Of a stretch of DNA of 60,486 bases, positions 10,740 to 49,299 are shown piece by piece. The translations under genes and the position numbers were made by a program. A model generated the notes under the pieces. The model was not told the origin of the DNA. It saw nothing but the letters and a program-made list of their open reading frames with translations, and searched no databases. Numbering within the stretch: position 1 is the stretch's first letter; each line of letters begins with the position of its first letter. Source of the stretch: Clostridia bacterium (GTDB lineage: Bacteria; Bacillota; Clostridia; Christensenellales; Borkfalkiaceae); NCBI GenBank assembly GCA_029062045.1, contig JAIDQV010000032.1, forward strand, positions 1-60,486, given 5' to 3'.

Positions 10740-10745
10740 ATGTGC

Positions 10746-11090: not shown

Positions 11091-11117
11091 ATCTGTTTCC
11101 TTCTTTACCCGCGCTAC

Positions 11118-12629
11118 TTAATTCACGATGAAAATCTTACCTATGGCGCTTTCAAATTCACATTCGTCCGAAGACGGGCTTTGGCTGTACTGCGCCATAA
11201 TAACTATACGGCATTTGCAAAGTTTGCCTTGAATTTTTACGTTACAATCCAGTCTGGCTTTGGGGTTTTCGCTCGTTGCCGTGTCAATCAAACCGAATAG
11301 CTTTTTCAGCGTTTCTTCGCCGAAGCAGTCAATCATTTTACTGTCGTTTACAGGGTCAGTTACGGTAGCGCCCACGCCGAGCTTTTCGCCGCCGTCGCCG
11401 AAGAACGAAATCATCGAAGGGTCGCAGTAAACCTCGAAAAGAATTTCACGGGACAGGGACGCGATAAACTGATATTTCTCACGCTCGCGGTCCAACAAGT
11501 CAAGCGTGCGCCTTGAAACGCTTAGCCCGCTGTTGGAAATAGCTTCGCGTGTGATGCGTTCCAAGTCTTTACGGCTGTTCACGCTTAAAGACCGCTCGCG
11601 CAAAGCGTTACGGATTCTTTCTGCGGAAAACTGTAAAACTTTCAAAAGAAGGGGATTGAACGAGCCGCATTTACCGCTTACAATGCTCTCGATAGCAATA
11701 TCGTGATGCATTTCTTTACGGTATGTCAGTTCGTCGTAAACGTCGGCAATCGCAACGACCTGCGCCGAAATGGGTATATCGTCCCCTTTCAGTCCTTCGG
11801 GATAGCCGCTTCCGTCGTACCGTTCGTGGTGGAAACGGCAAACTTCCCGCGCTACGCGAAGCAGCGGTTCGTTCTGATGGAAAGGAATTTCTTTAAGCAT
11901 TTGCTCGCCGTACTCGACGTGCTTTTTCAGCATTGCAACTTCTTTGGGCGTGAGCTTTTCGGTCTTGTTCAAAATATTGACGTCAACGGCGATTTTACCG
12001 ATATCGTGCAACGAGGACGCCGTAACTATAAGCGAAATTTCCTGCGGCGTCAAAGGATACTTATCGGTCATCTTCATTAAGTTTTGCAGCAATATTTCCG
12101 TAACGGTATGAACGTGGAAAACGTGCAAACCGCTTTCACCGTTTCTGTATTCAAGAATATGGCTTAAAATATTTATTAAAAGTGACTGCTCTTTCTGCGT
12201 TTCGTAAATCTGTTCTTCCACAAGCCCAATAAGATTTTTCTGTTGGGAGTGAAGCATAATCGCATTCTGTACGCGGCGGTGTACGACGGCCACGTCGAAG
12301 GGGCGTTGGATATAGTCGGTTGCGCCCAGCTCGTATGCCCTGCCTATGTACGAAGACGAGCTTTCGGCGGAAATCATAATGACGGGGATATTCTGAATCC
12401 ACTTGTAGCTGTTCATAATAGCAAGAACTTGCAGTCCGTCCATTTTGGGCATAACGATATCGAGAAGCACGAGGGAAATTTCCACGCTGTAACTGCGAAG
12501 TGTGTTGACAGCCTCTATACCGTCGCGCGCTTCCATAATTTCAAACTCTTCGCCCAGCATATCGGAAAGAATTTCGCGGTTCATCTCCGAATCGTCTACG
12601 ATTAAAATTTTCTGCTTTCTTTTGCTCAT
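11118..12629 (-). CDS. Response regulator with HD-GYP domain (predicted c-di-GMP phosphodiesterase) and extra C-terminal domain
   Basis: REC (ILIVDDSEMNRE...LLDIVMPKMDG), HD motif (LHDIGK) and HHERYDGSGYPEGL (HD-GYP signature). About 150 aa at the C-terminus are uncharacterised. Confidence 0.85.
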   Translation of the reverse strand: MSKRKQKILIVDDSEMNREILSDMLGEEFEIMEARDGIEAVNTLRSYSVEISLVLLDIVMPKMDGLQVLAIMNSYKWIQNIPVIMISAESSSSYIGRAYELGATDYIQRPFDVAVVHRRVQNAIMLHSQQKNLIGLVEEQIYETQKEQSLLINILSHILEYRNGESGLHVFHVHTVTEILLQNLMKMTDKYPLTPQEISLIVTASSLHDIGKIAVDVNILNKTEKLTPKEVAMLKKHVEYGEQMLKEIPFHQNEPLLRVAREVCRFHHERYDGSGYPEGLKGDDIPISAQVVAIADVYDELTYRKEMHHDIAIESIVSGKCGSFNPLLLKVLQFSAERIRNALRERSLSVNSRKDLERITREAISNSGLSVSRRTLDLLDREREKYQFIASLSREILFEVYCDPSMISFFGDGGEKLGVGATVTDPVNDSKMIDCFGEETLKKLFGLIDTATSENPKARLDCNVKIQGKLCKCRIVIMAQYSQSPSSDECEFESAIGKIFIVN

Positions 12630-12839: not shown

Positions 12840-14000
12840 TTACTTCATATCTTTTGTCAAAGGAATATCACATTCTTCGATAGTAATCATCTCTTCTTCT
12901 GTAATATTTCCTTTATCCATAAGCCGCTGCGCCTGATGCGTAACAACCGCCTGGAAAGTGTTTCTTGCGGTACGGCCGTTACCGAAGTCTTTATCCCTCT
13001 TTTCATACAGTTCGGTAAATCTGTCCGTCATAAGTTTTTCGGCAGCCGCCGTAAGTTTATAATTATTCTTTTTGCACAAGCCGAAGAATATTTTATAAAG
13101 CTCGTCGGGCGTGTAATCCTCAAAGTCGATAACGGTATTGAACCTTGACTTTAAACCCGAGTTGGTGGCAATTAAGTCCGCCATAGGCTGAGAGTACCCA
13201 GCCATTATAACTACTAACTCGTTACGGTGGTCTTCCATTGCTTTAAGCACTGTATCTATAGCTTCCTGCCCGAAGTCGTTGCCGCTACTGTTGCCTTTGA
13301 GCATATACGCTTCGTCTATAAACAGAACGCCGCCAAGGGCCTTGTCTATGACTTCACGGGTTTTAGGTGCCGTCTGTCCGACGTAACCTGCAACCAAATC
13401 ATTGCGTGCGGTTTCTACAAGCTGACCCTTTTGCAAAATGCCGAGCGACCTGTAAATTTGCGCCATAAGTCTTGCAACGGTTGTTTTACCTGTACCGGGG
13501 TTGCCCGTAAATACCATATGATAAGAGAAGCCGTCGGGAACGGGCAAACCTTTTTCCTGCCTCAGCTTGAAAAACTTTACCTGGTCGACCCATGACGAAA
13601 CTTTGGCTTTAACGCCCGAAAGTCCTATAAGTCCGTTCAGTCTTGCCAAAGCCTCCTCAACGGAAAGCTGTTCAACTTCCTGTTCTTCCGCCTTGGCTTT
13701 GCTTTCAACCGCCTTTTGCGTGTTTGCCGCACCGCCTCTTGCGGGTTGACCGCCAGAAGTCACGCTAGTGCCGTTGCTCTTATTTGTTACCGGGCGCACG
13801 CCGTTCTCGGCTTTTTGCTCGCACTCTTCGGCCAAAGCAATATACTCGTTCTTTTTAGCCGGAAATGCCGCTGCCGCCTGCCTGTACTGCTTTGCCGCCG
13901 CCTTGTAAGACTGCACGGCGACAGACATCCCGCAGCTTGCCTGCTTTTCGGCTTTGTCGAGCATGGTTTTTGCTGCTAATAAGTAATAATCGGCATTCAT
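12840..14000 (-). CDS. AAA+ ATPase, CbbX/SpoVK/EccA-type, with N-terminal MIT/TPR-like helical domain
   Basis: Walker A FTGNPGTGKTTVAR; Walker B GGVLFIDEAY; sensor region VVIMAGY...LKSRF, characteristic of the CbbX/SpoVK clade. The N-terminal ~70 aa form a three-helix, Ala/Lys/Gln-rich segment. Confidence 0.8.
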   Translation of the reverse strand: MNADYYLLAAKTMLDKAEKQASCGMSVAVQSYKAAAKQYRQAAAAFPAKKNEYIALAEECEQKAENGVRPVTNKSNGTSVTSGGQPARGGAANTQKAVESKAKAEEQEVEQLSVEEALARLNGLIGLSGVKAKVSSWVDQVKFFKLRQEKGLPVPDGFSYHMVFTGNPGTGKTTVARLMAQIYRSLGILQKGQLVETARNDLVAGYVGQTAPKTREVIDKALGGVLFIDEAYMLKGNSSGNDFGQEAIDTVLKAMEDHRNELVVIMAGYSQPMADLIATNSGLKSRFNTVIDFEDYTPDELYKIFFGLCKKNNYKLTAAAEKLMTDRFTELYEKRDKDFGNGRTARNTFQAVVTHQAQRLMDKGNITEEEMITIEECDIPLTKDMK

Positions 14001-14007
14001 ATATCAC

Positions 14008-15513
14008 CTATTGCTGAATAAGTCCGAGGTCTTTTTCCAACGATTCGTATTTTGCCTCGTCCTTTTCTTCATTCATATCGGTATATGCCGCAGCCGCGCC
14101 CGCGAAAGTATTCATATTGATTTCCTCGCTGTCCGCTACTGCGCCCGCTACGCCTATCTCATCCAACTGCTCGTTGCTCTTTGCAACGGCTTCTTTAAGA
14201 TAGGTGGCAAGTCCCTGATAATCGGCAAACCGTCCGCCCGTCATCTGGTTTATCTTCATATTGGTAGCTTCGAGGTCTTGCTGAGTAGAGAGCTTGTCTA
14301 TAAGCAACAACTGCTCCTGCAAGGTAGATAACGCATTTCTGTAACGGCGGATAGAATACTGCACGCCGTTACGCTTTGCATTGAGCTGGTCAATCTGTCC
14401 GTCAAGTATAAGACAGTCGGAAGGTGAAGCCGTTTTACGTTTAATAAGTAAAGGCTTTAACTGTGCGTTCAAATCGTTGAGTTCGTCCTGAACGTCGTCT
14501 ATTTTATCATTGTAAGTATCGATGCTCTGCTGTAATGCCTGACGCGTTCTGTTAATGTCGTTAGCCATTTCCGCAGTGCCCATAACGCCGCCGAGTGCGG
14601 TTGCGCCGCCCATTGTCTGCGAAGTCGCCGCCGTTCCCGCCGTAGTAGTGGCAAACGGGTCGCCGAACGCGCCGAAAGCGTCACCCTCGGCAAACGGGTC
14701 ACCCAAAGCACCGAACGCACTGCCTGCGCCCAAAGCCGCCATATCCGCGGCAACCTGGCTCTGTTCTTCGGCTCTGCGCTGATTTGTTTCGGCAATATTT
14801 TCTCTGTAAACCTGCATCTGGTCGTCGCTTACGGTACGCCCGTTGACAAGCTCTGCATTTGTATTGTAGGTTTCCTCGAAAATGGTCGTAGTCTTTTCGC
14901 GTTCAAGCTCGGCCTGTAATCCGTTGAGCTTGTTGACGGTATTGGTTATCTCCATTTTGCATACGTTTGCCTGCGAAATGATAGACCTGTCGGTAGGGTT
15001 TGCGGCGTGTCTTTCACGGAGTTTTTCAAACGCCTTGTTCAAATCGGCGAGCTTTGCATTCTCCTCGTCGATTCTGTCCTGCAATTCTTCCGCACGGGAC
15101 TTTTCGTATGCGATGCCCTGCTTAGCCATTTTGCCAAGCGTTTTTTGTGCCTGTTGCTCGCGCTTTAAATCCGCTTTGGTTTTCTGTCCGCCCATTATGC
15201 AATAGCTCTGTCTTTCGGCAACCGCCTTTTTGATTTTTTCGAGCTTGTTTACAGCCGCCGTGGACTGCTGCTTGCTTAAACATACGCTTACTTCCTGTAA
15301 AAGCGAAAGAATAAGCGCGTCTAACTTCATTACCTCTTCCGAAGATGAATTGCCCTGATTTTGCATTTCAAGCTGAATATCTTTTAAGTATGAAGCAATT
15401 TCTCCGCCGAGACGGTTGCTCATAGTAAGCGCTGTTACGGTGGAAATAATTTGATTTTTATTGTATGTATTTGTTTCCTCTATCTTCTTTTTCTTATTAC
15501 CGAATAATCCCAT
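14008..15513 (-). CDS. Long coiled-coil protein, ESCRT-III/PspA-superfamily-like (two helical halves joined by a Gly/Ala-rich GDPFA-repeat linker)
   Basis: The N-terminus MGLFGNKKKK mirrors eukaryotic CHMP N-termini. Two heptad-rich halves flank the linker AFGALGDPFAEGDAFGAFGDPFA. The C-terminus is acidic and ends in an amphipathic helix, EAKYESLEKDLGLIQQ. Confidence 0.5.
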   Translation of the reverse strand: MGLFGNKKKKIEETNTYNKNQIISTVTALTMSNRLGGEIASYLKDIQLEMQNQGNSSSEEVMKLDALILSLLQEVSVCLSKQQSTAAVNKLEKIKKAVAERQSYCIMGGQKTKADLKREQQAQKTLGKMAKQGIAYEKSRAEELQDRIDEENAKLADLNKAFEKLRERHAANPTDRSIISQANVCKMEITNTVNKLNGLQAELEREKTTTIFEETYNTNAELVNGRTVSDDQMQVYRENIAETNQRRAEEQSQVAADMAALGAGSAFGALGDPFAEGDAFGAFGDPFATTTAGTAATSQTMGGATALGGVMGTAEMANDINRTRQALQQSIDTYNDKIDDVQDELNDLNAQLKPLLIKRKTASPSDCLILDGQIDQLNAKRNGVQYSIRRYRNALSTLQEQLLLIDKLSTQQDLEATNMKINQMTGGRFADYQGLATYLKEAVAKSNEQLDEIGVAGAVADSEEINMNTFAGAAAAYTDMNEEKDEAKYESLEKDLGLIQQ

Positions 15514-15527: not shown

Positions 15528-16424
15528 TTAAGATAATTTCTTGCCGCATCCGGGGCAGAACTGAACTTGACTACTTAACTTTGCACCGCATCTGGGGCAA
15601 TACTGCACGGGCTGGTTGATACCTGCATTACCCGCGTTTTGATTAGCGTTTTGCGCGGGGGCCTCGGTTGAAGGCGCCGTAGGCATACCGCCTATAAGCG
15701 AATTGAGCGCGTCTATTTCCGCACGCTGGGCACGTTCCTTTTCACGCCTGTCCAATTTTTCTTCTTTTCTACGGTTTTGGTTATCGAAGTACTCGGTGCG
15801 CTTATTCTTGTACTCTTCGTTAAAGAAAATTTGCTTTAACGAGAAATCCTCAACGCCGACGCCGTAGTTTGAAAAGGCTTCTGACAAAATTTTTGTAAGC
15901 GCGGTCGATATAAGCGATAACTGGGTATTTACCGTCTGATAGTCGTACTTTTGTAAAACCTCAGCAAGCCTTGTGGTCATTACCTCGCAAGTTTTACTTC
16001 TTATGTACTCGTCTATATCGTCAACGGTAATATCCGTTTTACCCAAATTGGTATAAAGCGCCCAGGGCTGGTTTATTCTTATTCTGAGGTGTCCGTTCAA
16101 GCCGACTGCCGTTTCGCAATTCAGTTCAAAATCCTTGAAAGGAATACCGCCTACTCCGCAGGGTATATCGTAAGTTTTGTCGGCGTTTACACCGATAAGC
16201 TGTAAGCTGTACCCGAACTTTTCTTCTTCCTTGGATTTTACTATCCAGCGTCCGGGAGTGTTTACGGATTTAAGCCCGCCGTTTACTATGTAAATTCCGA
16301 GACAGCCGGGTGCGACTTCCAACGTGGTATCGCGTACGGCAGATGTTAAGTCAATATTCCACATAACGTATTTGTCGCTTGCGGAGATGATGATGTTTCT
16401 TAATTTTTCGCTTTTTCCGAACAT
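15528..16424 (-). CDS. SPFH/Band-7-like protein with C-terminal double zinc ribbon (B. subtilis YdjI / COG4260-like)
   Basis: The N-terminal ~200 aa have the YdjI-like beta/alpha domain layout. This is followed by a charged coiled coil (RRKEEKLDRREKERAQRAE), a low-complexity Q/N/A linker, and YCPRCGAKL...FCPGCGKKLS. Confidence 0.65.
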   Translation of the reverse strand: MFGKSEKLRNIIISASDKYVMWNIDLTSAVRDTTLEVAPGCLGIYIVNGGLKSVNTPGRWIVKSKEEEKFGYSLQLIGVNADKTYDIPCGVGGIPFKDFELNCETAVGLNGHLRIRINQPWALYTNLGKTDITVDDIDEYIRSKTCEVMTTRLAEVLQKYDYQTVNTQLSLISTALTKILSEAFSNYGVGVEDFSLKQIFFNEEYKNKRTEYFDNQNRRKEEKLDRREKERAQRAEIDALNSLIGGMPTAPSTEAPAQNANQNAGNAGINQPVQYCPRCGAKLSSQVQFCPGCGKKLS

Positions 16425-16436: not shown

Positions 16437-17606
16437 TTAATTATTTATTCTTTCAAGTACGTTTTTAATATAAATTGCGGGAACACACATCGCTATGCCG
16501 CCCTCGCTTTTTCCGGGATAAAAAGTTATGACGCCTATCACGTTATTTGCCGCGTCTAAAAGCGCGCCGCCCGAATTTCCGTGGTTTACCGTCATATCCG
16601 TCTGAATTACGAAATCTACGTTTTTAGGATAATCGGTTTTACGGTTGGGACTTGACACGACGCCCTTGGATACGCTTAAACCTATTCCTAGGGGATTGCC
16701 CACGGTATAGACTTCTTCACCGAACGTAACCCCTTCCGTTCTCAGCGAAAGCAATTTGCGGGAAGAAAGCGCTTCGCCGATATTCCCTGTGAAGCACAGA
16801 ACGGCGATGTCAAGTTCGGGCAAGATTGCAAGCGGCATAAGATTATACGTCCGTTTGTCTATACTCGGCTCAAAATTTGCCTCTATGCACTCGGGGGATT
16901 CCCCTACGACGTGCGCATTTGTAATAACGTAACCACCCTGCACCAAAAAGCCCGAACCTTTGCTCAGCATTTTGTTGCGCCCCGACTTAAATACGGCGTT
17001 TATCGAAAGTATGGAAGGCAAAACCTCTTTTACCCTTTCAACGAAACTTCCGCCCTCTGCGGGAAGCTGGATATTACGGTTTTCGCTTACAAAGTCGTTA
17101 TTTCTCTCTGCGTCGCGGGTGTTTATTTTCAAACTGTTATAATCGTAACCCGTACCGCTTGCGCCCACAGACAAGTTTTGCGGCGCATCACCGCCCCAGT
17201 TCTCCGTCTGTAACTTTATACGGCTTGCGGCGTGCCCTGCGTCTGCGGCGATTTTTAACCATTTATGTGCCGTAAGACGGTCGGGCGGGTTGCTGTTTAA
17301 GCAAATTTCGGCATATTTGTACATGCCGTCGGGGTATCCGCGGAAAGCAAGCACCCTGTAAATTTCTTCGACTTCGCCGGGTGCGGAGCTTACCAAGCCC
17401 TGTTCTTTACCTAATGCCACACGGTACAAAACGGCATTGTCCAAAAAGGACGAGTATTTCAAAAATACCGAACATCCGCCGTTTTTCGTATCCCCTGCCT
17501 CGATTTCCGTGTTTTGCGCGGCAACGGAGGTCAACTTTTCACCGCAATAACGGCAAAAGTTGTCTTCGTCGGGGGATTGCTTGTTACACTTTACACAAAT
17601 TTTCAT
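16437..17606 (-). CDS. Zn-ribbon + Sel1-like repeat + trypsin-like (S1C/HtrA-type) serine protease, no PDZ
   Basis: N-terminal CVKCNKQ...FCRYCGEKL. Sel1-like segment YKYAEICLNSNPPDRLTAHKWLKIAADAGHAAS. Catalytic triad context ITNAHVV / LDIAVL / GNSGGALLD. Confidence 0.8.
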   Translation of the reverse strand: MKICVKCNKQSPDEDNFCRYCGEKLTSVAAQNTEIEAGDTKNGGCSVFLKYSSFLDNAVLYRVALGKEQGLVSSAPGEVEEIYRVLAFRGYPDGMYKYAEICLNSNPPDRLTAHKWLKIAADAGHAASRIKLQTENWGGDAPQNLSVGASGTGYDYNSLKINTRDAERNNDFVSENRNIQLPAEGGSFVERVKEVLPSILSINAVFKSGRNKMLSKGSGFLVQGGYVITNAHVVGESPECIEANFEPSIDKRTYNLMPLAILPELDIAVLCFTGNIGEALSSRKLLSLRTEGVTFGEEVYTVGNPLGIGLSVSKGVVSSPNRKTDYPKNVDFVIQTDMTVNHGNSGGALLDAANNVIGVITFYPGKSEGGIAMCVPAIYIKNVLERINN

Positions 17607-17618: not shown

Positions 17619-18755
17619 TCAACGGTCGTTCTTTTGTGATTTTAACCGTTCGGATACGTATGCGGTGACAACGGAATTTAAGTCCGAACCGTCTTTTATG
17701 CCCGCTTTTACTCCGGCTACGTAATATTTAAAGTCGTCGCAAATATAAGTTATAGACCTTCCGCTAAGCCCGTCCGACATATCGGCTAAGTACTCGAAAT
17801 CCAGCTTTTCCTTATATTCGTCTTCAAGCTCCGCAAGTTTGGATTTGAAAAAGCTCAACCTCATATTTTTATCGGGAAGGGGTATGTGAATACGCTTTCT
17901 GAACCTGTCCAAAATGCCGACGTCAAGAAGCTCCATACAGTTTGTGTTGGCAAGTATTAGAAAGGACTTGTTCTGTTTAATGCCGTCCATATTTCTTAAA
18001 AGTGCGGGAACCGCCGAAGCCGAGGCTTTGTCGTCACTGCCGCGCTGTTTTGCTATTTCGTCGAATTCGTCGAAAAATACGGTCAGCCCGCATTTGTTTT
18101 TTTCGGAATAGGAACGGAGCGCAGCAAACACTTTATCGATATTTTTTGCGGTTTCACCAACGTAACAGTTTACAAGCGCGGCTACGTTTACAAGCACGAA
18201 GGGCTGGTTTATTTCCTTTGCAACAGCCTTTGCAAACGTTGTTTTACCCGTGCCCGGAGGGCCCTCTAAAAGAATAGCCTTGTTATCGTTGAATTTATAG
18301 TTGTAATAATCGCCGTAGCGCAAAGGATTAATTACGTATTCCGTAACAGACTCTTTTGCGCTTTCAAGACCTATTACGCCTTCAAAGCCCTGTTCGAGTT
18401 CGTCGGCTTTATAAAACGTAAAGTATTCTTCCATACCTTCGGTATCAACGTCCTGGCTTTCGGTAGCGCAATCGTCGTCTTTATGCTGTACGGTTGGAAC
18501 GGCGCTCTGTCTTACCGGGGTTTGGTTATTAGCCGTAACCGTTATAGCCGCCGCGATAGCTTTAAGCCTTTGGGCGCGGCTGTTCAGTTCGGCCGCTTCC
18601 GCCCCGCTTTTACGCATAGAAAACTGTTCGAGATAGAACGCCGCCTGTTCAAACTTTTTCTTTGCCGTCGCAAGGTTGCCGTACTGCTTTGCCTTTAAGG
18701 CTTCGTCATAGTTTGTTTTAAAATTACCGTATAAGTATTCGTCGGATAAAGCCAT
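17619..18755 (-). CDS. MIT-like domain + classical AAA+ ATPase (Vps4-like architecture)
   Basis: N-terminus YDEALKAKQYGNLATAKKKFEQAAFYLEQF...AELNSRAQRLKAIAAAI resembles the Vps4 MIT three-helix pattern. Walker A LEGPPGTGKTTFAKA; Walker B VFFDEFDE; SRH-like ANTNCMELLDVGILDRFRKRIHIPLPD. Confidence 0.65.
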   Translation of the reverse strand: MALSDEYLYGNFKTNYDEALKAKQYGNLATAKKKFEQAAFYLEQFSMRKSGAEAAELNSRAQRLKAIAAAITVTANNQTPVRQSAVPTVQHKDDDCATESQDVDTEGMEEYFTFYKADELEQGFEGVIGLESAKESVTEYVINPLRYGDYYNYKFNDNKAILLEGPPGTGKTTFAKAVAKEINQPFVLVNVAALVNCYVGETAKNIDKVFAALRSYSEKNKCGLTVFFDEFDEIAKQRGSDDKASASAVPALLRNMDGIKQNKSFLILANTNCMELLDVGILDRFRKRIHIPLPDKNMRLSFFKSKLAELEDEYKEKLDFEYLADMSDGLSGRSITYICDDFKYYVAGVKAGIKDGSDLNSVVTAYVSERLKSQKNDR

Positions 18756-18770: not shown

Positions 18771-20369
18771 TTATTTGTCGTTTTCACTCTTCCATTCGTT
18801 GAGTTTTATAATATCTTCGGCCTGTACAGACGAGTGAATGACTTGAAGCGCTTCTTCAAAATCCTCACCCGATATGTATTTTTCCTGCGTTTTTATTCCG
18901 CGGATTATGGATATTTCCTCTATCCTGTCAAGAAGGTTGGTTATATCCGAGCCGTTAAATCCGTTTGTCTTTTCAACGATTTCGCCCAGGTTTATATCGT
19001 CCCTTACCGCAACCACGCCTTTTTCCGTAATTTTTACAAGGCGCTTATTTATCATATACTCTCTTGCGGGTGCGTCGGGAAGTCCGACGTAAATTTTGGT
19101 GCCGAAGCGTCCCGGTCTTAAAAACGCACTGTCTATATCCCAAGGTTTGTTAGTTGCGGCAATCAAGAAAAGAATGTTGCCCGTATCTTTTTTATAACTG
19201 TCTATACCTTGCAACTGCGCCAAAAATTCCGAACGCAACTGTTTTGCATACTGCGACTTAGTCGACTTGGGCGAAATAGAATCCATTTCGTCAAAATATA
19301 TTACGGCGCAGGGGAACTCTCTTGCCTGTGCAAACAGCGCGCGTACTGCCTTTTCGGTATTGCCAGCGCCCTGGTGCAGTAGGTCGGACGGCTTAACCGA
19401 ACAGAATTTTGCGCCTATTTCGTTTGCTATTGCCGCGGCAATCATGGTTTTGCCCGTTCCGGGAGGGCCGTAAAGGCACAAACCGCCGCCGTTCTTCTTT
19501 TCGTAGCCCTCGAATGCCTGAGGGTTTTTTAGGGGAAGCAATACCTTCACTTCCACTACTTCTTTGACTTGTTCGAGGCCTGCAATATCCTCAAACCTAA
19601 TTGAGGGAAGGCTGTCCCAGTTGAATTTAAACTCGGAAGACGCCCCCGCATCCCCGTTAACAAATTTGTCCTCGGGCGTTTCTGCGGGCGTGTTCGGCTT
19701 ATTCTCGGGTTTGGGACGCACAGTCGTAGCGGGCACAGGTGCAGGTGCGGGCGTAACCCCCTCTACTTGGGGTTGGCGGGTTGGCGTTTCCACCTGCGGC
19801 TGAGCTGCGGCAAACTCTTTTTCGAGTGCGGCAAGGGTGTCGTCCATTTGCAAGCTGTCACGGGAAATCTCGTCGTTTAAAAGCTCGCGGACGTCATCGT
19901 CGCTTATATCGGACACCGAATCCACACTGCTTGAAAACGCACTGTTGTTATTTTTTAACGCCTGTTGAAGCTGAGCCGAAGTGATACTCTGCTGATACAG
20001 CGCCTTCATAAACATCTTTTCGCTGTTGCTTACGTGTATAGCCTTGCAGGTCTTATATACGTTTTCCATAACGCTGTCAAGCGAGTTGACAAACTTCTTG
20101 TTAAGGTGCTGCATTTCGCACAAATCCTTTGCAATAGTAAAGTTTGCAACCATATCTTCCGCCTGTGCAAGGTTAAACATTGCGTTTTTAAGTAAAGCAA
20201 CCATAGCTTTATACTGCGATTCGTTGCCCTTCTTTAATGCCTCTTTGGCCTTTTGCGCGTACTCGTCCCTCTTCCTGGTCAAGGTCACGATAGCACCGTT
20301 CAAAGCGCGCATCGTTTCTTCCTGCTCGCGTTTCAATTTTAACTGTTTCTTAAAATCACGAAATCCCAC
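18771..20369 (-). CDS. ESCRT-III/Snf7-like N-terminal domain fused via Pro-rich linker to classical AAA+ ATPase
   Basis: Residues 1-190 are paralogous to the 189-aa ORF upstream (IVTLTRKRDEYAQKAKEALKKG vs VVTLTKKRDAAFAMVLEARQKG). Pro-rich linker TPAPAPVPATTVRPKPENKPNTPAETP. AAA: LYGPPGTGKTMIA, VIYFDEMDS, SRH ATNKPWDIDSAFLRPGRFGTKIYVGLPD. Confidence 0.65.
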   Translation of the reverse strand: MGFRDFKKQLKLKREQEETMRALNGAIVTLTRKRDEYAQKAKEALKKGNESQYKAMVALLKNAMFNLAQAEDMVANFTIAKDLCEMQHLNKKFVNSLDSVMENVYKTCKAIHVSNSEKMFMKALYQQSITSAQLQQALKNNNSAFSSSVDSVSDISDDDVRELLNDEISRDSLQMDDTLAALEKEFAAAQPQVETPTRQPQVEGVTPAPAPVPATTVRPKPENKPNTPAETPEDKFVNGDAGASSEFKFNWDSLPSIRFEDIAGLEQVKEVVEVKVLLPLKNPQAFEGYEKKNGGGLCLYGPPGTGKTMIAAAIANEIGAKFCSVKPSDLLHQGAGNTEKAVRALFAQAREFPCAVIYFDEMDSISPKSTKSQYAKQLRSEFLAQLQGIDSYKKDTGNILFLIAATNKPWDIDSAFLRPGRFGTKIYVGLPDAPAREYMINKRLVKITEKGVVAVRDDINLGEIVEKTNGFNGSDITNLLDRIEEISIIRGIKTQEKYISGEDFEEALQVIHSSVQAEDIIKLNEWKSENDK

Positions 20370-20382: not shown

Positions 20383-20952
20383 TTAATTTTTCAGTTTGGT
20401 TCTGTCGCCCGTAGCCGAAGCAAACAGCGCAGCCTCGTCCAGCATAGAATCTATCTCGCTATCGAATTCACTGTAATCGTCCTGGCCTATCGACGCCGCG
20501 GCACTATATTCGCCTACCGATAACATTCTGTCGATATTCTCTTTCTGACGCTCGGTTTCGTACATAGCGTGCATGTACTTGTTTTCAACCTGCTTTATGT
20601 TTGCGGTGTGTCTGCTCGCGCTGATAATATCCTCGGAGAGTATACCTATGCTGTTTAAGAAGTTTTGGTTGAGCTCTGCCAAATCGCGTGACTGAACGGC
20701 AAGTTCCATTGTCATAAGCATTCCTTCGGCACGTTTGCAAGCCGCCATAGTCTGCTTTAACAGTCCGCGCGCCTGCTTTTCCTGGGCTTCAAGTCCCTTT
20801 TGGCGCGCCTCCAAAACCATTGCAAAAGCCGCGTCCCTCTTTTTGGTGAGGGTTACCACTTGCAACTTCAAGTCCTTCGTAACCTTCTCAATCCTTGCGC
20901 GGCGCTCGGTTTCTATTTCTTCCTTCGTCTTCTTGTTTTTTTTGCCGAACAT
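20383..20952 (-). CDS. ESCRT-III/Snf7-like (PspA-superfamily) small coiled-coil protein
   Basis: 189 aa. MFGKKNKK N-terminus, a basic N-terminal helical hairpin and an acidic C-terminal tail (DDYSEFDSEIDSMLDEAALFA). The residue pattern is colinear with yeast Snf7 alpha1-alpha3, from my recollection of that sequence. Confidence 0.6.
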   Translation of the reverse strand: MFGKKNKKTKEEIETERRARIEKVTKDLKLQVVTLTKKRDAAFAMVLEARQKGLEAQEKQARGLLKQTMAACKRAEGMLMTMELAVQSRDLAELNQNFLNSIGILSEDIISASRHTANIKQVENKYMHAMYETERQKENIDRMLSVGEYSAAASIGQDDYSEFDSEIDSMLDEAALFASATGDRTKLKN

Positions 20953-20955: not shown

Positions 20956-21459
20956 TCAGTCCCCTTTTAAAATGGTATTTTCTGTCTCGCACATAAGCGC
21001 GTAAATTTTCTGTGTTTCACGGATGATATCCACCGTAACGGAGATATCCGAGCCTAAACCGTGCGCTATACTGTTGCGCATAGAAACAATGTTTCTAATG
21101 GATTTAAGCTGCTGCCCGTCTATAATTCCAAGTTCAAGCGCCCGCTTCCCCCAGCAAACGGCGTTGCCGTCCACAAGCGCTTTCGATTTTTCGTTGAGCG
21201 CGCTGACGTTATCCAAAAATATCAGCACGAGTTTGTCGTTTTCGGGTTCAACCGTTTTAGGTGCCTCCGGAATTTCGTTCCGAACGGGCGGGCTGTCAAG
21301 AACGGGGGCTGAAAAATCCTCTTGTTCTTTAACAGGTTTTTCGGGTTGTTTTTTGACGTCCTCACTCTTCACCGTTCGGCAATAGCGGCATACGGTTACG
21401 CCGTTAAGAAGAATAAAATCTTCACCTCCGCAATTCGGACATACTGATGTATTTTTCAT
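20956..21459 (-). CDS. Zn-ribbon protein with C-terminal HEPN-like (DUF4145-like) domain
   Basis: N-terminal CPNCGG...CRYCRT, an acidic/Pro linker, and a C-terminal helical domain with an Rx4H motif (MRNSIAHG). Overlaps the upstream HAD gene by 4 nt (ATGA). Confidence 0.5.
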   Translation of the reverse strand: MKNTSVCPNCGGEDFILLNGVTVCRYCRTVKSEDVKKQPEKPVKEQEDFSAPVLDSPPVRNEIPEAPKTVEPENDKLVLIFLDNVSALNEKSKALVDGNAVCWGKRALELGIIDGQQLKSIRNIVSMRNSIAHGLGSDISVTVDIIRETQKIYALMCETENTILKGD

Positions 21460-22220
21460 AATTTAACTTGACCTAAAATTTCCCCCACGCTTTTTATTAC
21501 GAACTGCGGAAAGTTTCCGCACCCGTAAAATACGGTTTTTAAATCTTCGGGAAAGTATTTTTTTAATCTTTCGTGCGCCACGGCATAATCGGCTTTACTA
21601 AGCATATTCACGTCGGCGTCGCTATCGCCCGCGGCGATTGTAATTTTATTGTTAAGTCTTGCCTTTATAAGCCGCACCGCCTCTCCTTTGTCCGCAACCT
21701 GCGGATAAAAATAAACTTTCTTGCCGGAGGCAACGCACGCCAAACTACCGTTTTGCCCAAAGTCGCAAACAAATTTTTGCGCGCCTTCGGCGGTTTTACA
21801 ATTTACCTGTATATATCTTTTATCAACTATCTTAACACTGTACTCGGTTTGGCTTAATAAGCGACCGTATAAAGCTAAAATTTCTTCGTTAAACGGCTTG
21901 TATATCCTATCGTAAATTTTCTCCCACTCTCCGTCTGCGGTGCCGTTTACCAAAAGGCGCGCGCCGTTTGCCACAAGCGCATAATTTATCTCAACGCCTT
22001 CCGCCCATTTTATCCGTTTGAACTGCTCTTCCGAGCGGGTGGTCAGCGGAATAAATTCCACCTTTCGGGAAAGCCCGCAAAGTCCGTTATACACTTCGGG
22101 CGGCATATAGCCGTGCTGCTTTCCGTCAATTATTTCAACGCAAACATCTCCCTCGTTTTTATGACGGAAAGAGTATAACAGCGTATCGTCCAAGTCGCAC
22201 AAAAACAGAATATCTTTCAT
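21456..22220 (-). CDS. HAD-superfamily phosphatase (Ter-cluster associated type)
   Basis: Motif I FLCDLDDTLL (DxDxT); late motif AAGDSDADVNM (GDxxxD). Confidence 0.8.
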   Translation of the reverse strand: MKDILFLCDLDDTLLYSFRHKNEGDVCVEIIDGKQHGYMPPEVYNGLCGLSRKVEFIPLTTRSEEQFKRIKWAEGVEINYALVANGARLLVNGTADGEWEKIYDRIYKPFNEEILALYGRLLSQTEYSVKIVDKRYIQVNCKTAEGAQKFVCDFGQNGSLACVASGKKVYFYPQVADKGEAVRLIKARLNNKITIAAGDSDADVNMLSKADYAVAHERLKKYFPEDLKTVFYGCGNFPQFVIKSVGEILGQVKL

Positions 22221-23270
22221 CTAAATATCCGAAATTTTTTGTATTATTCCGCATGCTTTATAATTTTTGAGTGGATACTCTTCTACCGTTACGCCCTTCT
22301 CTTCGGCAAGAGTGTATATGTGTCCGAGATGCGGAAAGTCGTCTAAACTATGCACAAGCATTTTCCCGGGCACTCTTCTAAGTAACACGCGGGTTGCCTC
22401 GCCAATGCTAGGCTTTACCAGGTTTACGTCGTCTATGCCAAAGTCTTTGCAAATGCGGCTAACCTCTTCCAAACCCGAAACACATTCGCACTTTTCTTCT
22501 TCACAGGGGGCGCCGAAATCAAAATACTTTTCAACGGTATCTATAAACCCGTACGTCCTGTCCTTGTCTTTAAGGTGCGAATAAAAAGCCGCGCCGTGAA
22601 AATCCTTTTCACCTATCAAATCGCTGCGCAATACCGTTCGGCTCAAAAGTCCGGACACCGTGCAGTTTAACAGCGAGCTTGCAATTAAAAAATCTTCGTG
22701 CGTGCCGCAAATCTCTGCCGCAAAGGCAGGGTCGGACAACACCGCAAGCCCAGCGTTTAAACCTTTATAACCGTTTACCGCCTTTTTAACCTCGCGTGCG
22801 ATTACGCCCTTGCCCGTCCAGCCGTCTACAAATCTTACGTCTTTTGCGCTATGTCTTTCTAGAATATAATCCAATGCGTTTTTATCTATTCCCCTGTCGC
22901 GGATAATGGAAATAGTGTAATGGGGTACGCATAAATTATATTTTTTATCTAAGTATCTCTTTAATAAAATGCCTATCGGCGTTCCCGCTCTTGCAAGGGA
23001 CACGAGAACGACGTTGTTTCCGTGGAATTTTAATATTTTTTCGGCAGCCGTTCCTACGGCTTGCGCGGTTATCGGGGCGTAACGTTTCAACGCTTCTTCA
23101 TACACTTTTACATACTGTGCGCTAGGTTCGTACTCCAAAGGCAAAGTTTCGGAATAGTGCAGTCCGCCCTGTATAAGCCGCTCTCTTTCATCCGTGCTGA
23201 GCGGTTTTAATTGTCCCGTAATATCTTTTAATAAGATATTAACGTCGTCCTTTTTATAGCTCGAAAACAT
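22221..23270 (-). CDS. PRTase-like protein of the Ter-associated 'StiP' family
   Basis: VVLVSLARAGTPIG and RFVDGWTGKGVI resemble a PRPP-binding loop. The gene is adjacent to a second PRTase, HAD and CitE-like genes, as in ter-linked biosynthetic modules. Confidence 0.6.
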   Translation of the reverse strand: MFSSYKKDDVNILLKDITGQLKPLSTDERERLIQGGLHYSETLPLEYEPSAQYVKVYEEALKRYAPITAQAVGTAAEKILKFHGNNVVLVSLARAGTPIGILLKRYLDKKYNLCVPHYTISIIRDRGIDKNALDYILERHSAKDVRFVDGWTGKGVIAREVKKAVNGYKGLNAGLAVLSDPAFAAEICGTHEDFLIASSLLNCTVSGLLSRTVLRSDLIGEKDFHGAAFYSHLKDKDRTYGFIDTVEKYFDFGAPCEEEKCECVSGLEEVSRICKDFGIDDVNLVKPSIGEATRVLLRRVPGKMLVHSLDDFPHLGHIYTLAEEKGVTVEEYPLKNYKACGIIQKISDI

Positions 23271-23271
23271 A

Positions 23272-24399
23272 TTATCCTTTTACCAAAACAAAGCGTTTTG
23301 TGCCGCAACTGCCGAAAATTTTAATTATATCTTTAAGCGCCGACTCTACATCGCTTTCGGAATCGGTAACTATTACGGCAACATCGTAATATTCGGGATT
23401 GTAGATAAACGTCGCCCTATGTTTGTCGTAAAACCCCGAAAGTCCGTATCCGCCAAATATCGGATAATCTTCTTTTTCGGAAACTGCGATGGGGCTTCTC
23501 GTCGTCGAATGGCTCTTTACACTTTTTAGGGGATAATTGCGCTCAATCTCCGCACCGAAAATTATTGCAGGATACATACATTCCTCGGTACCCAAAACGA
23601 GAATTTTTTCAGCCGAATTTAACTCTTTTGCAAGTTCGTCCAAAAGTCCTTCAGATATGTTTTTAAGCGTTTTTTCGTACTCTGAAGCCTCAACGCCCAG
23701 TCTGGGGTCGGGCAAGGGCCGGGGTGTGTTTATAATTTTGACGTCGGCGGCACATTCGGGCAATTCTGCCGCAATTTTCGGCGCAGTGGCCGAAACGCTT
23801 TCGACTTCCGAAGAATAATCGGAAAAAGGAAGTTTTAAAAGGCTTACGCATTCTATTCCTTTTTCGGCAAGGCGCGCCTCGTTTTCAGCCGAAATCCTGT
23901 CAATTACGCTTGCGGCGATTATCCTTTTCTTCGCCGCCGTAGGGAATTCTTTGATAAGTTTATCAATTATATTGATAAGCGTTTTACCCGTCGTGAACTC
24001 GTCGTCGACGAATATCAATTTGTCCGCGTTATCTATATACTTTGCAATATCTCTTTTTAAAAGTTTTTGTTCCACCGCGTGGCTATGCTCTTCGGAAAAG
24101 TCTAAAAAAGGCTCGCCCTCTTCGCGCTCGCGCGTGGTATGAATATAATCGCAACCGCACAGTACAGCTACTGCCGCCCCTATTGCCGTTGCCGTTTCGG
24201 CAAAGCCTATTACTAAACCGCCCTGCCCGTATTTGCTCTTGATTATTGCGCCAAACGCGTTCATCATATCAAGCGCTTTTAAAGGGCTTACGGGTATATG
24301 CTTTGCCTGCAAGGTGTTCACCAACAGATAGGTGCGTTTTGCGTTGTTGTATCTCTTTGCTATTCTCAAAAGAGTTTTCGCGGAATATTCTTCGTTCAT
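23272..24399 (-). CDS. Phosphoribosyltransferase-family protein with C-terminal Ter-associated (TRSP-like) domain
   Basis: PRPP-binding motif KLIFVDDEFTTGKTL, with a ~200-aa C-terminal extension. Confidence 0.75.
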   Translation of the reverse strand: MNEEYSAKTLLRIAKRYNNAKRTYLLVNTLQAKHIPVSPLKALDMMNAFGAIIKSKYGQGGLVIGFAETATAIGAAVAVLCGCDYIHTTREREEGEPFLDFSEEHSHAVEQKLLKRDIAKYIDNADKLIFVDDEFTTGKTLINIIDKLIKEFPTAAKKRIIAASVIDRISAENEARLAEKGIECVSLLKLPFSDYSSEVESVSATAPKIAAELPECAADVKIINTPRPLPDPRLGVEASEYEKTLKNISEGLLDELAKELNSAEKILVLGTEECMYPAIIFGAEIERNYPLKSVKSHSTTRSPIAVSEKEDYPIFGGYGLSGFYDKHRATFIYNPEYYDVAVIVTDSESDVESALKDIIKIFGSCGTKRFVLVKG

Positions 24400-24400
24400 T

Positions 24401-25360: not shown

Positions 25361-25375
25361 TAACCTTTTCCCCTG

Positions 25376-27196
25376 TCAATCTTCTACTTCTATGCCATAA
25401 CCGTTGCTGATTTTTTCTATTCCGTCGTTTACGCCGAGTATTGTGAAATTAATTTTCCAGCTTCCCTTGTAACGGTAGAACTCAAACAATAAATTGCTAA
25501 CCGTAACGTCATACGACGACGGGTCGAATACATACAGAACTTCGCCCACCTGTAGCGTAAACTTTGCACTGTCGATTTTGGGAACAGCCCTCTTGCGGGA
25601 ATTTTCCAAACTCAATGCCGCAACTATAAATTTAATTCTGTCGGTTTCAAAATCCGTTTTGCTTAAATTTACAGTTATGTCCGAGTAATTTTCAAACTCG
25701 CGCAACTCGATTGATTTATCCAAAGAAACGTTGTTGCCTGCAAATACCAAATCTTTTTCCGACAGTACCTTCCCTTTTGTTGTAACAGGGAATATATAAA
25801 CCCCCGCCAACGCATCGGCCATATTGGCGCTGTATTCGATATGAATATATATCTTTTCGTCTTCGTTGTCTATAGGCGCCCGCTGACCGCGTGTAACAAT
25901 AACTTCTTTGGTCGCCTTTTTACGTTTGTTTTTGTTCTTAGGCGCCGGCGCGGGTGCAGGCTCGGGCTCAGGCTCGTAAGAATAATCGGGGGTATCATCC
26001 CACACGATAGTCCTTCTGTTGGTAGAACGTCTGCGAACAGGTTCGGGCTCGGGCTCGTAATCGGGTTCGGGCTCGTAATCACTCTCGATATCCTCGTCCA
26101 CGTCGGGAACGTTCTCTTCGGCTTGAACGGGTGCCTCTTGCTGTTCTTCGGCAGGTTGCTCTTCCTCGGGTTCCGCCACTTCGGGCTGCGCAGGCGCAAC
26201 CTCAACGGGTGCAGGCGCAGGTGCGGGTTCAAGCTCTTCATCCGAAACCATAAGCCTGTCAAACACCGTTTCGGGGTCGTAGCAATATTCAAGCCCCTCG
26301 AAAAACTTTTTAAAAGTACGCTCTATAGCGGCTTTGCCCGTATAGTTTTCAATTAAATACTCAACTTTCTGCTTCTTCTTTCCCGTCTTGCGCTCCATAT
26401 CCAAAACATAGCGCACCTCTTCCTTGGTGTCGCAAGCAACGCTTCGGGAATTTGTGGAAGATATGAACACAAACGCTTTGCAATTATCTATTGCTTTTTT
26501 TATCGACGTCCAATAATTTTGCGCAGCGTTACGGCCGTGTTGCAGGTTTCTTATTGCAACAAAGCAAGCAAGTCCGTTTTCTTCAAGGTAGTCCACAAGT
26601 TTTTGAACTGTTTCCATATCCTTGCTGGAATAACATATAAACGCGTCGCGCGGAAGCTCGGGGTCGTATACGCAGTCGTTTACCTTTTGCGACTCTTCAT
26701 CGTATTTGGTACGGTATGTAGAGTAAAGCTCAAGGTCTGTGTTTTTATACGCCCGCTCTATAAGATTGCATACAGACATCATATTGCGGCCGTTCAAAGA
26801 TTTCAGCGAAAAATCAAGCACGGTACTAATATCGTCCATATTGCTTTTGACGTCTATAGAATCGAGAAAACTTATTAACGCAGCGTCGTTCTCCTCATTT
26901 GCCGCTTCAAAAAAAGACGCGAAAAAATCTTGCGGAAGATAACCTTTTATCTCTCGGCACAGTCTTAGTATTTGCGCGCTGTCGGTATATTCGTCGCTTA
27001 TTTTTTTCCAAAGCTGCGTGCGCAAATTGGCAACTTTTTCCTGCTTTTCTTTATCGAGAAGTTCGGAAAGCGCCTCGGCTTGTTTTACGAGGGTATCCTC
27101 TTTAAACTGTGTACGGCAAAACTTGCAACGACAGCCGCTTTCGGTTTCTATAATTTCTCCGCCGCATTTAGGACAGGTAAGTTCAGTCAAGTTCAT
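25376..27196 (-). CDS. Zn-ribbon + helical domain + TIR domain + disordered Pro/Glu linker + degenerate TerD-like domain
   Basis: CPKCGG...CKFCRT. The TIR signature DAFICYSSKD...AFVFISSTNSRSVACDTKEEV includes a candidate catalytic Glu. The linker carries EPEP/APAP repeats. The C-terminal 175 aa are colinear with TerD (DLVFAGNN...FEFYRYKGSWKINF...GYGIEV) but lack the GDxxTG/GDDE Ca2+ clusters. Start refined to the ATG at 27196 (RBS AAAGGAAAT). Confidence 0.7.
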   Translation of the reverse strand: MNLTELTCPKCGGEIIETESGCRCKFCRTQFKEDTLVKQAEALSELLDKEKQEKVANLRTQLWKKISDEYTDSAQILRLCREIKGYLPQDFFASFFEAANEENDAALISFLDSIDVKSNMDDISTVLDFSLKSLNGRNMMSVCNLIERAYKNTDLELYSTYRTKYDEESQKVNDCVYDPELPRDAFICYSSKDMETVQKLVDYLEENGLACFVAIRNLQHGRNAAQNYWTSIKKAIDNCKAFVFISSTNSRSVACDTKEEVRYVLDMERKTGKKKQKVEYLIENYTGKAAIERTFKKFFEGLEYCYDPETVFDRLMVSDEELEPAPAPAPVEVAPAQPEVAEPEEEQPAEEQQEAPVQAEENVPDVDEDIESDYEPEPDYEPEPEPVRRRSTNRRTIVWDDTPDYSYEPEPEPAPAPAPKNKNKRKKATKEVIVTRGQRAPIDNEDEKIYIHIEYSANMADALAGVYIFPVTTKGKVLSEKDLVFAGNNVSLDKSIELREFENYSDITVNLSKTDFETDRIKFIVAALSLENSRKRAVPKIDSAKFTLQVGEVLYVFDPSSYDVTVSNLLFEFYRYKGSWKINFTILGVNDGIEKISNGYGIEVED

Positions 27197-27242
27197 ATCA
27201 TATTTCCTTTTCAGAAGAAATAAAAAGCATTCTTTATAAAAT

Positions 27243-27278
27243 GACAAAAATATAGGCAGCTATAATATGCCTATATTT
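27243..27278 (-). terminator. Intra-cluster hairpin + T-run (possible attenuator/partial terminator after the terD pair)
   Basis: On the minus strand: AATATAGGCA-tattatagc-TGCCTATATT followed by TTTTGTCATTTT, in the only long (~100 nt) gap of the cluster. Confidence 0.45.
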
Positions 27279-27298
27279 TGTCTTAGGATATAACTAAA

Positions 27299-27889: not shown

Positions 27890-27917
27890 TTTTCTATCTC
27901 CTTTAATTTTTTACTTA

Positions 27918-28520: not shown

Positions 28521-28576
28521 ATTTTTCTCCTTTGTTTTATTAATTTATACGGATAAGAAATCCAATTTAATTAGAT

Positions 28577-47899: not shown

Positions 47900-48003
47900 C
47901 TAAATTCTTGAAATCAGCAACTCCCAATTCTTCCCAAAATATTCCACAATTAACTTTTTTACGTAGATGTGTCATCTTCAAATAATAATCTATCTTGTCT
48001 CAT

Positions 48004-49182: not shown

Positions 49183-49299
49183 AGTTTGACCCTCGTCTCA
49201 CCTATAAAACCAACTTACAATTTTTATAGCAAAATTGTTGCTAGTCATTTTTTATTTTATATTTCAATTACAATTATCTATGCAAGCCGTAGAAATTTC

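Follow-up and report, generated by a model that had tools for sequence, protein, structure and literature searches.

A Vps4/CdvC-like AAA+ ATPase encoded with Snf7-type ESCRT-III-like proteins in uncultured Clostridia

The DNA analysed here, referred to as the window, is a stretch of 60,486 nucleotides from a Clostridia bacterium of the Borkfalkiaceae (GenBank assembly GCA_029062045.1, contig JAIDQV010000032.1). The gene at 17619..18755 on its reverse strand encodes an ATPase, referred to below as MIT-AAA, that resembles Vps4 and its archaeal counterpart CdvC. [quoted passage not shown] As a Vps4/CdvC-like ATPase, MIT-AAA probably belongs to a bacterial system for membrane remodelling, in which it recycles Snf7-type polymers. 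The gene and its parts are as follows.

17619..18755, reverse strand: MIT-AAA, a 378-residue Vps4/CdvC-like type-I AAA+ ATPase with an MIT-like domain, a linker and one classical AAA+ cassette
18546..18743, reverse strand: predicted MIT-like three-helix bundle, residues 5-70 (AlphaFold2, Foldseek, Pfam MIT, hhalign)
18423..18545, reverse strand: flexible and poorly conserved linker, residues ~71-111 (alignment consensus 'x' throughout)
17622..18422, reverse strand: AAA+ module, residues 112-378 (alignment of 60 sequences, model, VPS4B alignment)

Domain layout of the ATPase

The open reading frame and its N-terminal sequence were present in the window as given in a preliminary description of this DNA. 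Translation starts at an ATG preceded 6 nt upstream by a GTGAGG ribosome-binding site, and the gene is separated from the preceding one by 15 nt. More than 100 full-length homologs were recovered at 49-81% identity, and the gene was therefore taken to be real and conserved. All of the homologs came from metagenomes or metagenome-assembled genomes (MAGs); the few with names were Clostridia or Clostridiales. An AlphaFold2 model built from a 60-sequence alignment had a mean pLDDT (predicted local distance difference test) of 89.5 and comprised helices at residues 5-24, 28-47 and 52-70 and an AAA+ module at 112-377.

The preliminary description had likened the N-terminal ~75 residues to the three-helix MIT pattern of Vps4, and the model and searches bore this out. 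Modelled alone with AlphaFold2, the domain reached a pLDDT of 90.9. This model was searched with Foldseek against 350,542 PDB chains. The first three ranks, at TM-scores of 0.67-0.69, went to 2w2u (chains A and B) and 2v6y, all of them the MIT domain of a Vps4-like ATPase from Sulfolobus, and MIT domains made up 19 of the 50 top matches when counted from entry descriptions. The MIT matches included Vps4p, VPS4A/B, SKD1, spartin, NRBF2 and chitin synthase, and MITD1 was matched at TM-scores of 0.78-0.80 with a root-mean-square deviation of 1.2. The top structural ranks were thus held by MIT domains and not by TPR proteins or another fold with no MIT similarity.

Sequence profiles were also compared. 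Among Pfam families, MIT was matched by more of the homolog N-termini than any other (6 of 43; best E 0.0026, sub-threshold). Alignment of the domain to a Vps4 MIT alignment with hhalign gave a P of 5.7e-4, with GN[YL]..A...Y..A of helix 2 and RA..LK of helix 3 in the expected register. The Vps4 MIT alignment had been built from matches to a VPS4B MIT sequence that was 100% identical to a database VPS4B. A profile of the 43 homolog N-termini gave weak PDB matches to the chitin synthase MIT domain (E 0.13) and to Vta1 (E 0.2) that were suggestive and not significant. The N-terminal 119 residues of MIT-AAA, searched alone against Pfam and the PDB, returned nothing relevant (apolipophorin and ATR HEAT at E >0.03). 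Taken together, the N-terminal domain is predicted to be an MIT-like three-helix bundle, on convergent evidence in which no single score was significant.

A linker and a single AAA+ cassette follow, as had also been proposed. Pfam AAA (PF00004) was matched once, at residues 161-293 (E 8.6e-31), and the model contains one module behind a linker that is disordered at residues 77-102 (pLDDT <50). The cassette carries pore loop 1 (Y198-V-G200), the segment LDVGILDRFRKRIHIPLPD of the second region of homology (SRH) and a helical lid, which is followed by a C-terminal helix at 359-377. The 60-sequence alignment was invariant at Walker A (GPPGTGKT), Walker B (D229-E230), pore loop 1 (Y198-x-G200), the sensor-1 residue N272 and the arginine-finger residue R284. 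With these elements conserved the enzyme should be active, and the cassette is predicted to be catalytically intact.

All PDB sequence matches of MIT-AAA belonged to the classical clade of AAA+ proteins. The list was led by p97/Cdc48 (77.7 + 108.5 bits) because the scores of their two cassettes add up. When the AAA region was searched alone, the first single-cassette protein was Acidianus CdvC/Vps4 (4lcb; 118.4 bits, E 3.8e-33), against 108.5 bits for p97 D2 alone. The module was therefore placed inside the classical clade, the placement on which the preliminary description had depended. With the full model, the best Foldseek match was Metallosphaera sedula Vps4 (4d82; E 8.6e-15), with p97, PAN and Msp1 close behind. 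Against human VPS4B, BLASTP aligned 335 residues at 32% identity, from within the MIT region through the AAA cassette. In that alignment LDVGILDRFRKRIHIPLPD, an SRH of the RF.KRI.IPLP type, pairs with Vps4 LDSAIRRRFEKRIYIPLPE; the SRH stretch 'ILDRFRKRIHIPLPD' pairs with Vps4 'IRRRFEKRIYIPLPE', and the RPGR of Cdc48 and FtsH is absent. With both the N-terminal domain and the AAA module so placed, the occurrence of a Vps4 domain architecture in a bacterium is supported.

Candidate Snf7-type partners, gene order and accessory genes

Two genes directly upstream of MIT-AAA encode the candidate partners.

20383..20952, reverse strand: Snf7-type ESCRT-III-like protein, 189 residues, with a basic N-terminus MFGKKNKKTKEE and, near the C-terminus, Y[ST]EFDDEIDxM[IL] followed by a basic-aromatic end (assigned by family profile)
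18771..20369, reverse strand: 532-residue fusion in which residues ~1-190 are ESCRT-III-like, followed by a proline-rich linker and a classical AAA+ with AAA_lid_3 and Vps4_C

An exhaustive profile search with the family of the 189-residue protein recovered 225 representative relatives, most of them ~190 residues long and some forming the N-terminus of proteins of 430-940 residues. In a wider family of 79 sequences, Pfam Snf7 was matched by 30 members (best E 9.6e-7) and the next family by only 4. The profile of these 79 sequences, searched against the PDB, matched CHMP2A over positions 5-150 (~146 positions; E 8.3e-5) and also CdvB, CdvB2 and CHMP3. A 95-sequence profile searched against the PDB (177,635 sequences) gave CHMP2A (E 7.2e-5), followed by CdvB, CdvB2, CHMP1B (twice) and Vps24. 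Six different ESCRT-III proteins were thus recovered by profiles of the Snf7-like family, with the CHMP2A match near full length. PspA/Vipp1 (PspA_IM30) was not matched in the Pfam scans or PDB profile searches of this family.

The signal weakened when fewer sequences were used. The close family of the 189-residue protein gave no Pfam Snf7 signal (top families Phage_TAC_5 and DUF4890) and, in the PDB, only CdvB2 at E 0.18. Ten distant family members were scanned singly and none reached E 0.01 for Snf7. As single members stay below the Pfam gathering score, the Snf7 assignment is one made at the level of profiles. In the 532-residue protein the N-terminal domain is paralogous to the 189-residue protein (BLASTP E 4e-12). 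On these profile matches, both are assigned to a bacterial Snf7-type ESCRT-III family. This relationship, which the preliminary description had not recognised, is the strongest evidence for the Vps4-like reading. The ATPase part of the 532-residue protein matched Pfam Vps4_C at 22.6 bits (cutoff 21.3) and has an SRH of the 'RPGRF' form typical of Cdc48 and FtsH.

Three neighbouring coiled-coil proteins with acidic C-terminal helices had been put forward as possible ligands of the MIT-like domain. This held for the products of 14008..15513, which ends in ...EAKYESLEKDLGLIQQ, and 20383..20952, which has ...EFDSEIDSMLDEAAL ~20 residues before its C-terminus; both motifs were conserved across homologs. 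It did not hold in that form for 18771..20369, which is an ESCRT-III-like/AAA+ fusion whose conserved acidic helix MDDTLAALEKEF is internal and closes the N-terminal domain. The second Snf7 paralog ends in DDIL..LEKEF, the motif represented in the window by MDDTLAALEKEF. The C-terminal motif of the coiled-coil family is KDE.KY..LE.[ED]LG[LIM], and the Snf7 proteins of the shortest loci, described below, carry DEEIDRL and DDEISALENKIK. These helices resemble the amphipathic helices of type-1 MIT-interacting motifs (MIM1). Because they are conserved and occur on neighbours assigned to Snf7-type ESCRT-III, the proposal that they are MIM-like ligands is indirectly supported.

To compare gene order, one genome per species was scanned. 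The Snf7-like gene was found in 16 species, all represented by gut MAGs and labelled as Clostridia, Eubacteriales, Christensenellaceae, Subdoligranulum or 'Bacilli'. The window and 26 further loci (L numbers below) were annotated with local hidden Markov models. The order Snf7, Snf7 (alone or fused), MIT-AAA was kept in ~20 independent Clostridia loci, and a Snf7-domain gene lay directly upstream of MIT-AAA in every MIT-AAA locus except L016, where TIR genes were inserted. The full order runs Snf7, Snf7, MIT-AAA, zinc-ribbon/Sel1/trypsin-like protease, SPFH protein with zinc ribbon, ~500-residue coiled-coil protein and second AAA+ protein. In L003 the two halves of the operon were permuted, with the protease in the half without MIT-AAA.

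The second Snf7 gene varies in form: it may stand alone, be fused to an AAA+ domain or be fused to a RuvB-like/NERD module. In L017-L020 the ortholog of the 532-residue gene is a stand-alone 191-residue Snf7 paralog. In L001 (7552-9987), L010, L012, L014, L015, L023 (9001-11403) and L026 (2942-5701) the second Snf7-like domain belongs to a fusion of 800-920 residues that is not Cdc48-like AAA+. These long fusions carry Pfam RuvB_N, AAA and WHD_RuvB together with TnsA-like or NERD nuclease-like domains.

Shorter loci were also recovered. L021 (9001-11290) and L024 (6001-8290) have only a minimal cassette of Snf7 (216 residues), Snf7 (191) and MIT-AAA (355). It is inserted into the yphA-der-plsY-spoIVA sporulation neighbourhood, which is conserved, and lies there between plsY and spoIVA. 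In L025 the locus is a dyad of Snf7 and MIT-AAA. Since the variants keep this part, the core of the operon appears to be the ESCRT-III and Vps4-like pair, with the remaining genes as an accessory block. Separately, a Snf7-like gene pair in L026 was found ~2 kb from spoIVA.

The accessory genes of the window lie downstream of MIT-AAA.

16437..17606, reverse strand: zinc ribbon, Sel1 repeat and trypsin-like (S1) serine protease, predicted cytoplasmic (Pfam Trypsin_2 E 5e-24; no transmembrane segment)
15528..16424, reverse strand: soluble SPFH/Band-7 protein, YdjI-like, with C-terminal zinc ribbon (Pfam Band_7 E 6e-11, Band_7_1, Zn_ribbon_3; no transmembrane segment)
14008..15513, reverse strand: 501-residue coiled-coil protein with a conserved C-terminal motif (PDB matches only to coiled coils)
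12840..14000, reverse strand: 386 residues, second MIT-like N-terminal domain (residues ~1-65) and SpoVK/CbbX/EccA-type AAA+ with AAA_lid_6 (NCBIfam, hhalign)

Intergenic gaps in the operon of the window are 7-15 nt, and no transmembrane segment was predicted in any of the seven operon proteins. A promoter and terminator scan was uninformative, with counts close to the shuffled expectation. The protease gene always lay directly upstream of the SPFH gene, and it was missing from L004, L013, L016, L021, L024 and L025 while the Snf7/MIT-AAA pair persisted. The 501-residue coiled-coil protein was considered as a third ESCRT-III protein and rejected; hhalign probability was at most 12%, and the PDB gave only generic coiled coils (HA2, lamin, keratin).

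The N-terminal profile of 12840..14000 aligned to that of MIT-AAA over 65 columns at 94% hhalign probability (E 1.3e-7), and weakly to Vps4 MIT (P 7.4e-4). Its AAA+ part scored 276 bits for NCBIfam spore_V_K and 263 bits for EccA, both below cutoff. The same N-terminal domain was found on a classical AAA+ instead in L001 (14921-16030), L003 (4323-5498), L014 (16987-18138) and L015 (16296-17480). In the last gene of the operon the targeting domain has apparently been retained and the motor exchanged between AAA+ clades. The gene with the second MIT-like domain invariably comes straight after the gene for the coiled-coil protein; this arrangement suggests that the two form a second, parallel substrate-ATPase pair.

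Three operon proteins that are otherwise unrelated (the Snf7-like product of 20383-20952, the coiled-coil product of 14008-15513 and the SPFH product of 15528-16424), together with their homologs, start with the motif M(G)(L)FG[KN]KK. CHMP2A and CHMP3 have similar N-termini, and the motif could act as a common signal for membrane binding or processing.

Further genes adjoin the operon in the window.

20956..21459, reverse strand: zinc-ribbon and HEPN-like protein, 167 residues, directly upstream of the Snf7 gene (HEPN_MAE_28990 E 7e-5, below cutoff)
25376..27247, reverse strand: zinc ribbon, TIR and TerD, 623 residues, loosely associated (TIR_2 E 6e-12, TerD E 1e-11)

A longer homolog of the HEPN-like protein occupied the same position in L005 and L006, so association with the operon is possible and variable. 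In L007, L016 and L026, homologs of the TIR-TerD protein lie beside or within the operon. In the window the gene for this protein is part of a Ter-associated module directly upstream of the operon (21456-31327, reverse strand) that comprises TerD (27918-28520), the zinc-ribbon/TIR/TerD protein, a C-C_Bond_Lyase, PRTase_2 with TRSP, StiP with PELOTA_1, a HAD phosphatase and a P-type cation ATPase (28577-31327). The lyase of this module is present again in L007. Very large LRR_5/Flg_new proteins, some with weak TIR_2 matches, adjoin the operon in L004 (12746-19151), L025 (1-2209), L026 (465-2162), L001 (16047-21110) and L003 (15093-18467). Directly downstream of the operon in the window (7446-12629, reverse strand), a 1097-residue hybrid sensor kinase, a 114-residue Hpt-like protein and a 503-residue response regulator with an HD-type output domain were recognised by eye from their translations. 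GC content falls to 0.29-0.31 at 48001-52000 and 58001-60000, against a background of ~0.45, and these segments may have been acquired horizontally.

Two further readings were checked and rejected. As a known defence system, the locus gave only generic AAA, TIR and protease-domain matches with PADLOC. As a phage or viral element, it had no relative in IMG/VR, and the matches in phage genomes were limited to generic AAA proteins of the FtsH-like kind.

Proposed system and alternative explanations

In the system proposed here, the Snf7-like proteins would polymerise on the cytoplasmic face of the membrane, a location suggested by the lack of transmembrane segments in the operon and by a short basic N-terminus like that of CHMP2/3. 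The MIT-like domain would dock on the C-terminal helices of the Snf7-like proteins. The ATPase would form a hexamer, thread subunits through its Tyr-Val-Gly pore loops and disassemble or remodel the polymer as Vps4 does. In the larger operon a soluble SPFH protein, by analogy with YdjI recruiting PspA, and a trypsin-like protease are added. Repair or remodelling of the membrane in response to envelope stress is considered the likeliest role. The linked TerD, TIR and HEPN genes may tie the system to phage or toxin attack, and the position beside spoIVA may tie it to sporulation.

A wider claim is held more tentatively, as a serious possibility: that Clostridia hold a complete ESCRT-III/Vps4-type machine, with Snf7-type filaments recycled by a cognate MIT-AAA+ ATPase. 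In its elaborate form, two pairs (the Snf7 proteins with MIT-AAA, and the 500-residue coiled-coil protein with the second MIT-like AAA+) would work on a platform of SPFH protein and protease. In its minimal form beside spoIVA, it might serve a membrane fission or repair step of sporulation.

Several observations count against a Vps4-like ATPase acting on Snf7-type polymers. For the MIT-like domain, no Pfam MIT (PF04212) match exceeded the gathering score and MIT-AAA of the window itself had none; hhalign probability to the Vps4 MIT alignment was only 29%; and each Foldseek E-value was at least 0.1, as is expected for a bundle of 75 helical residues. TPR families were also among the weak matches of this domain, and three-helix bundles are common. 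In VPS4A, Leu64 contacts MIM1; the equivalent position, read from the hhalign alignment, was not conserved. MIM1 and MIM2 have canonical consensus sequences, and the acidic helices of the operon fit neither.

For the AAA+ cassette, NCBIfam scores did not separate the families (IteA 138.4, CdvC 132.4 and PAN 130 bits), all lying far below their cutoffs (equivalog cutoffs: CdvC 650 bits, IteA 510 bits). The C-terminal region gave no Vps4_C (PF09336) match, and no beta-domain was present in the model. With cutoffs unmet and Vps4_C lacking, MIT-AAA is classed by its sequence as Vps4/CdvC-like and not as an ortholog-level member. The 189-residue protein of the window itself had no Pfam Snf7 match, so that its link to ESCRT-III goes through the family profile. 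All carrier genomes are uncultured MAGs. Finally, a defence system would be equally in keeping with several features of the loci, namely the TIR, HEPN and TerD neighbours, the flanks that vary and the protease next door.

The last of these points leads to the first alternative, which is considered unlikely: that the operon is an IetAS-type defence module, anti-phage or toxin-antitoxin-like in nature. MIT-AAA would then restrain or activate a toxic serine protease, the helical proteins would be sensors or scaffolds, and the ESCRT-III likeness would be mechanistically irrelevant. The Ter/TIR/HEPN context, the IetA-like best matches and the adjacent protease all lend support to it. IetA/IteA, likewise a single classical AAA+ near a serine protease, was the best PADLOC/NCBIfam match of MIT-AAA (E 1.5e-43 and 3.2e-40); a serine protease gene follows MIT-AAA in most loci; TIR-TerD, TIR+LRR and HEPN-like genes recur beside the operon; and the flanks vary as they do in defence islands. 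A SNF2 helicase gene two genes downstream of MIT-AAA in L003 recalls ietHAS (PMC13069673). However, at 138 bits the IteA score falls far short of the 510-bit cutoff and is no better than those for CdvC (132) and PAN (130), and the IetA match is restricted to the AAA core. The protease is of another family: IetS is subtilisin-like, whereas the operon protease is trypsin-like. It also tracks the SPFH gene and not the ATPase, and is dispensable in six loci. The minimal cassette sits among housekeeping and sporulation genes, IetAS as described has no Snf7 partners, no PADLOC system was matched beyond generic domains, and nothing was found in viral contigs. A role in defence or stress and an ESCRT-III/Vps4-like mechanism are in any case compatible and not mutually exclusive.

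Judged less probable again is that MIT-AAA serves regulated proteolysis as a general unfoldase or adaptor, as with the proteasome or FtsH. Its N-terminal bundle would be TPR-like and recognise substrates, possibly the Snf7-like proteins, which would be fed to the trypsin-like protease on an SPFH scaffold (compare HflK/C-FtsH and stomatin-NfeD). SPFH-protease gene pairs are a known theme, as in HflKC-FtsH and stomatin-STOPP. The PAN, Cdc48 and FtsH models scored nearly as well as CdvC, TPR families were among the weak matches of the N-terminal domain, and Sulfolobus CdvB is reported to be degraded by the proteasome (PMC12909875). Against this, several loci have the ATPase and dispense with the protease, and no genes are linked to MIT-AAA more tightly than those for Snf7. 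MIT and not TPR proteins held the top Foldseek ranks, and no recognisable protease-docking motif was seen in MIT-AAA in a search that was not rigorous.

Very improbable is a superficial likeness, in which a generic helical oligomerisation domain and unrelated coiled coils serve some other function: each single MIT or Snf7-like match was weak, and coiled-coil and helical proteins draw spurious profile matches (designed helical repeats appeared in the PDB lists of the Snf7 profiles), but independent lines (the structure search, Pfam, the register of the hhalign alignment and the AAA subfamily) converge on MIT and Vps4/CdvC, the profiles give a significant link to Snf7 (E 7e-5, six ESCRT-III proteins), and the two families occur together in one conserved operon, which is the archaeal and eukaryotic pairing.

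Relation to known systems

A Vps4-like ATPase has been said in review to 'appear[s] absent in bacteria' and PspA systems to lack one (PMC7619361), and according to a 2024 survey ESCRT components can be identified in archaea 'but not in bacteria' (PMC10936438). Whether an equivalent ATPase exists was a question raised when PspA/Vipp1 was assigned to the ESCRT-III superfamily (PMC8281802). No description of the clostridial Snf7 and MIT-AAA operon was found in the literature that could be searched. The operon would make the question of a bacterial ESCRT-III ATPase directly testable, including in its three-gene minimal form, would bear on when ATP-driven ESCRT-III remodelling arose, and would give access to a new system of membrane remodelling or stress in Clostridia that are abundant in the gut. 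If the complete machine proposed above is real, it would be the first Snf7/Vps4 pair working together in bacteria; Vps4-driven ESCRT-III dynamics would then not be an archaeal-eukaryotic invention, or the whole module would have been transferred across domains.

EccA-type proteins have a small helical, TPR-like N-terminal domain before a CbbX-type AAA+. The product of 12840..14000 resembles EccA, SpoVK and CbbX in having a CbbX-type AAA+ with AAA_lid_6 behind such a domain. It differs in scoring below the equivalog cutoffs, in the MIT-like character of its N-terminal domain and in its Snf7 operon.

The pspA-ydjGHI operon of Bacillus subtilis likewise encodes an ESCRT-III-superfamily polymer with a soluble SPFH protein; during envelope stress this protein, YdjI, brings PspA to the membrane (PMC8581546). 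The clostridial polymer is predicted to be Snf7-type and not PspA-type, and YdjG/H-like membrane anchors are lacking. SPFH and zinc-ribbon proteins also occur in archaeal ESCRT loci (PMC10936438).

The Vps4 architecture alone is not new in bacteria. MIT+Vps4-AAA proteins have been reported in several bacterial phyla (Ravi et al. 2024; for example Opitutus ACB74714.1), with snf7 replaced by a gene for a protein with TPR and six transmembrane segments (PMC11237479). Compared by description, those proteins, the only bacterial ones of this kind found in the literature searched, share the architecture and have no Snf7 partner, whereas MIT-AAA is Snf7-paired and found in Clostridia.

As in the eukaryotic Vps4/CHMP system, the partners have K[TS]PEEL in the N-terminal region and acidic helices at the C-terminus, and their profile matches CHMP2A, CHMP1B and Vps24. 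In contrast, the clostridial system lacks a beta-domain, a Vta1 system and upstream ESCRT-0/I/II, the MIM1-contact residues are not conserved, and one partner is fused to its own AAA+.

Archaeal CdvC/Vps4 with CdvB, in Sulfolobales and others, is alike in its MIT bundle, linker, single classical AAA+ and adjoining Snf7-family gene or genes. CdvC was the best structural match to the MIT-like domain (2w2u, 2v6y) and the best match in sequence and structure to the AAA module (4lcb, 4d82), and it is not known to have a beta-domain, which MIT-AAA also lacks. The differences are a score of 132 against the cutoff of 650 bits with no Vps4_C match, and a single arginine (DRF) in the SRH where Vps4 has RRR. 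The operon also has no CdvA or ESCRT-II winged helix-turn-helix partner, the C-terminal motifs of the partners are not canonical MIM2, and the host is a bacterium with FtsZ-based division, as expected for Clostridia. Of the systems compared, archaeal CdvB/CdvC is the closest, and eukaryotic Vps4/CHMP is the functional paradigm.

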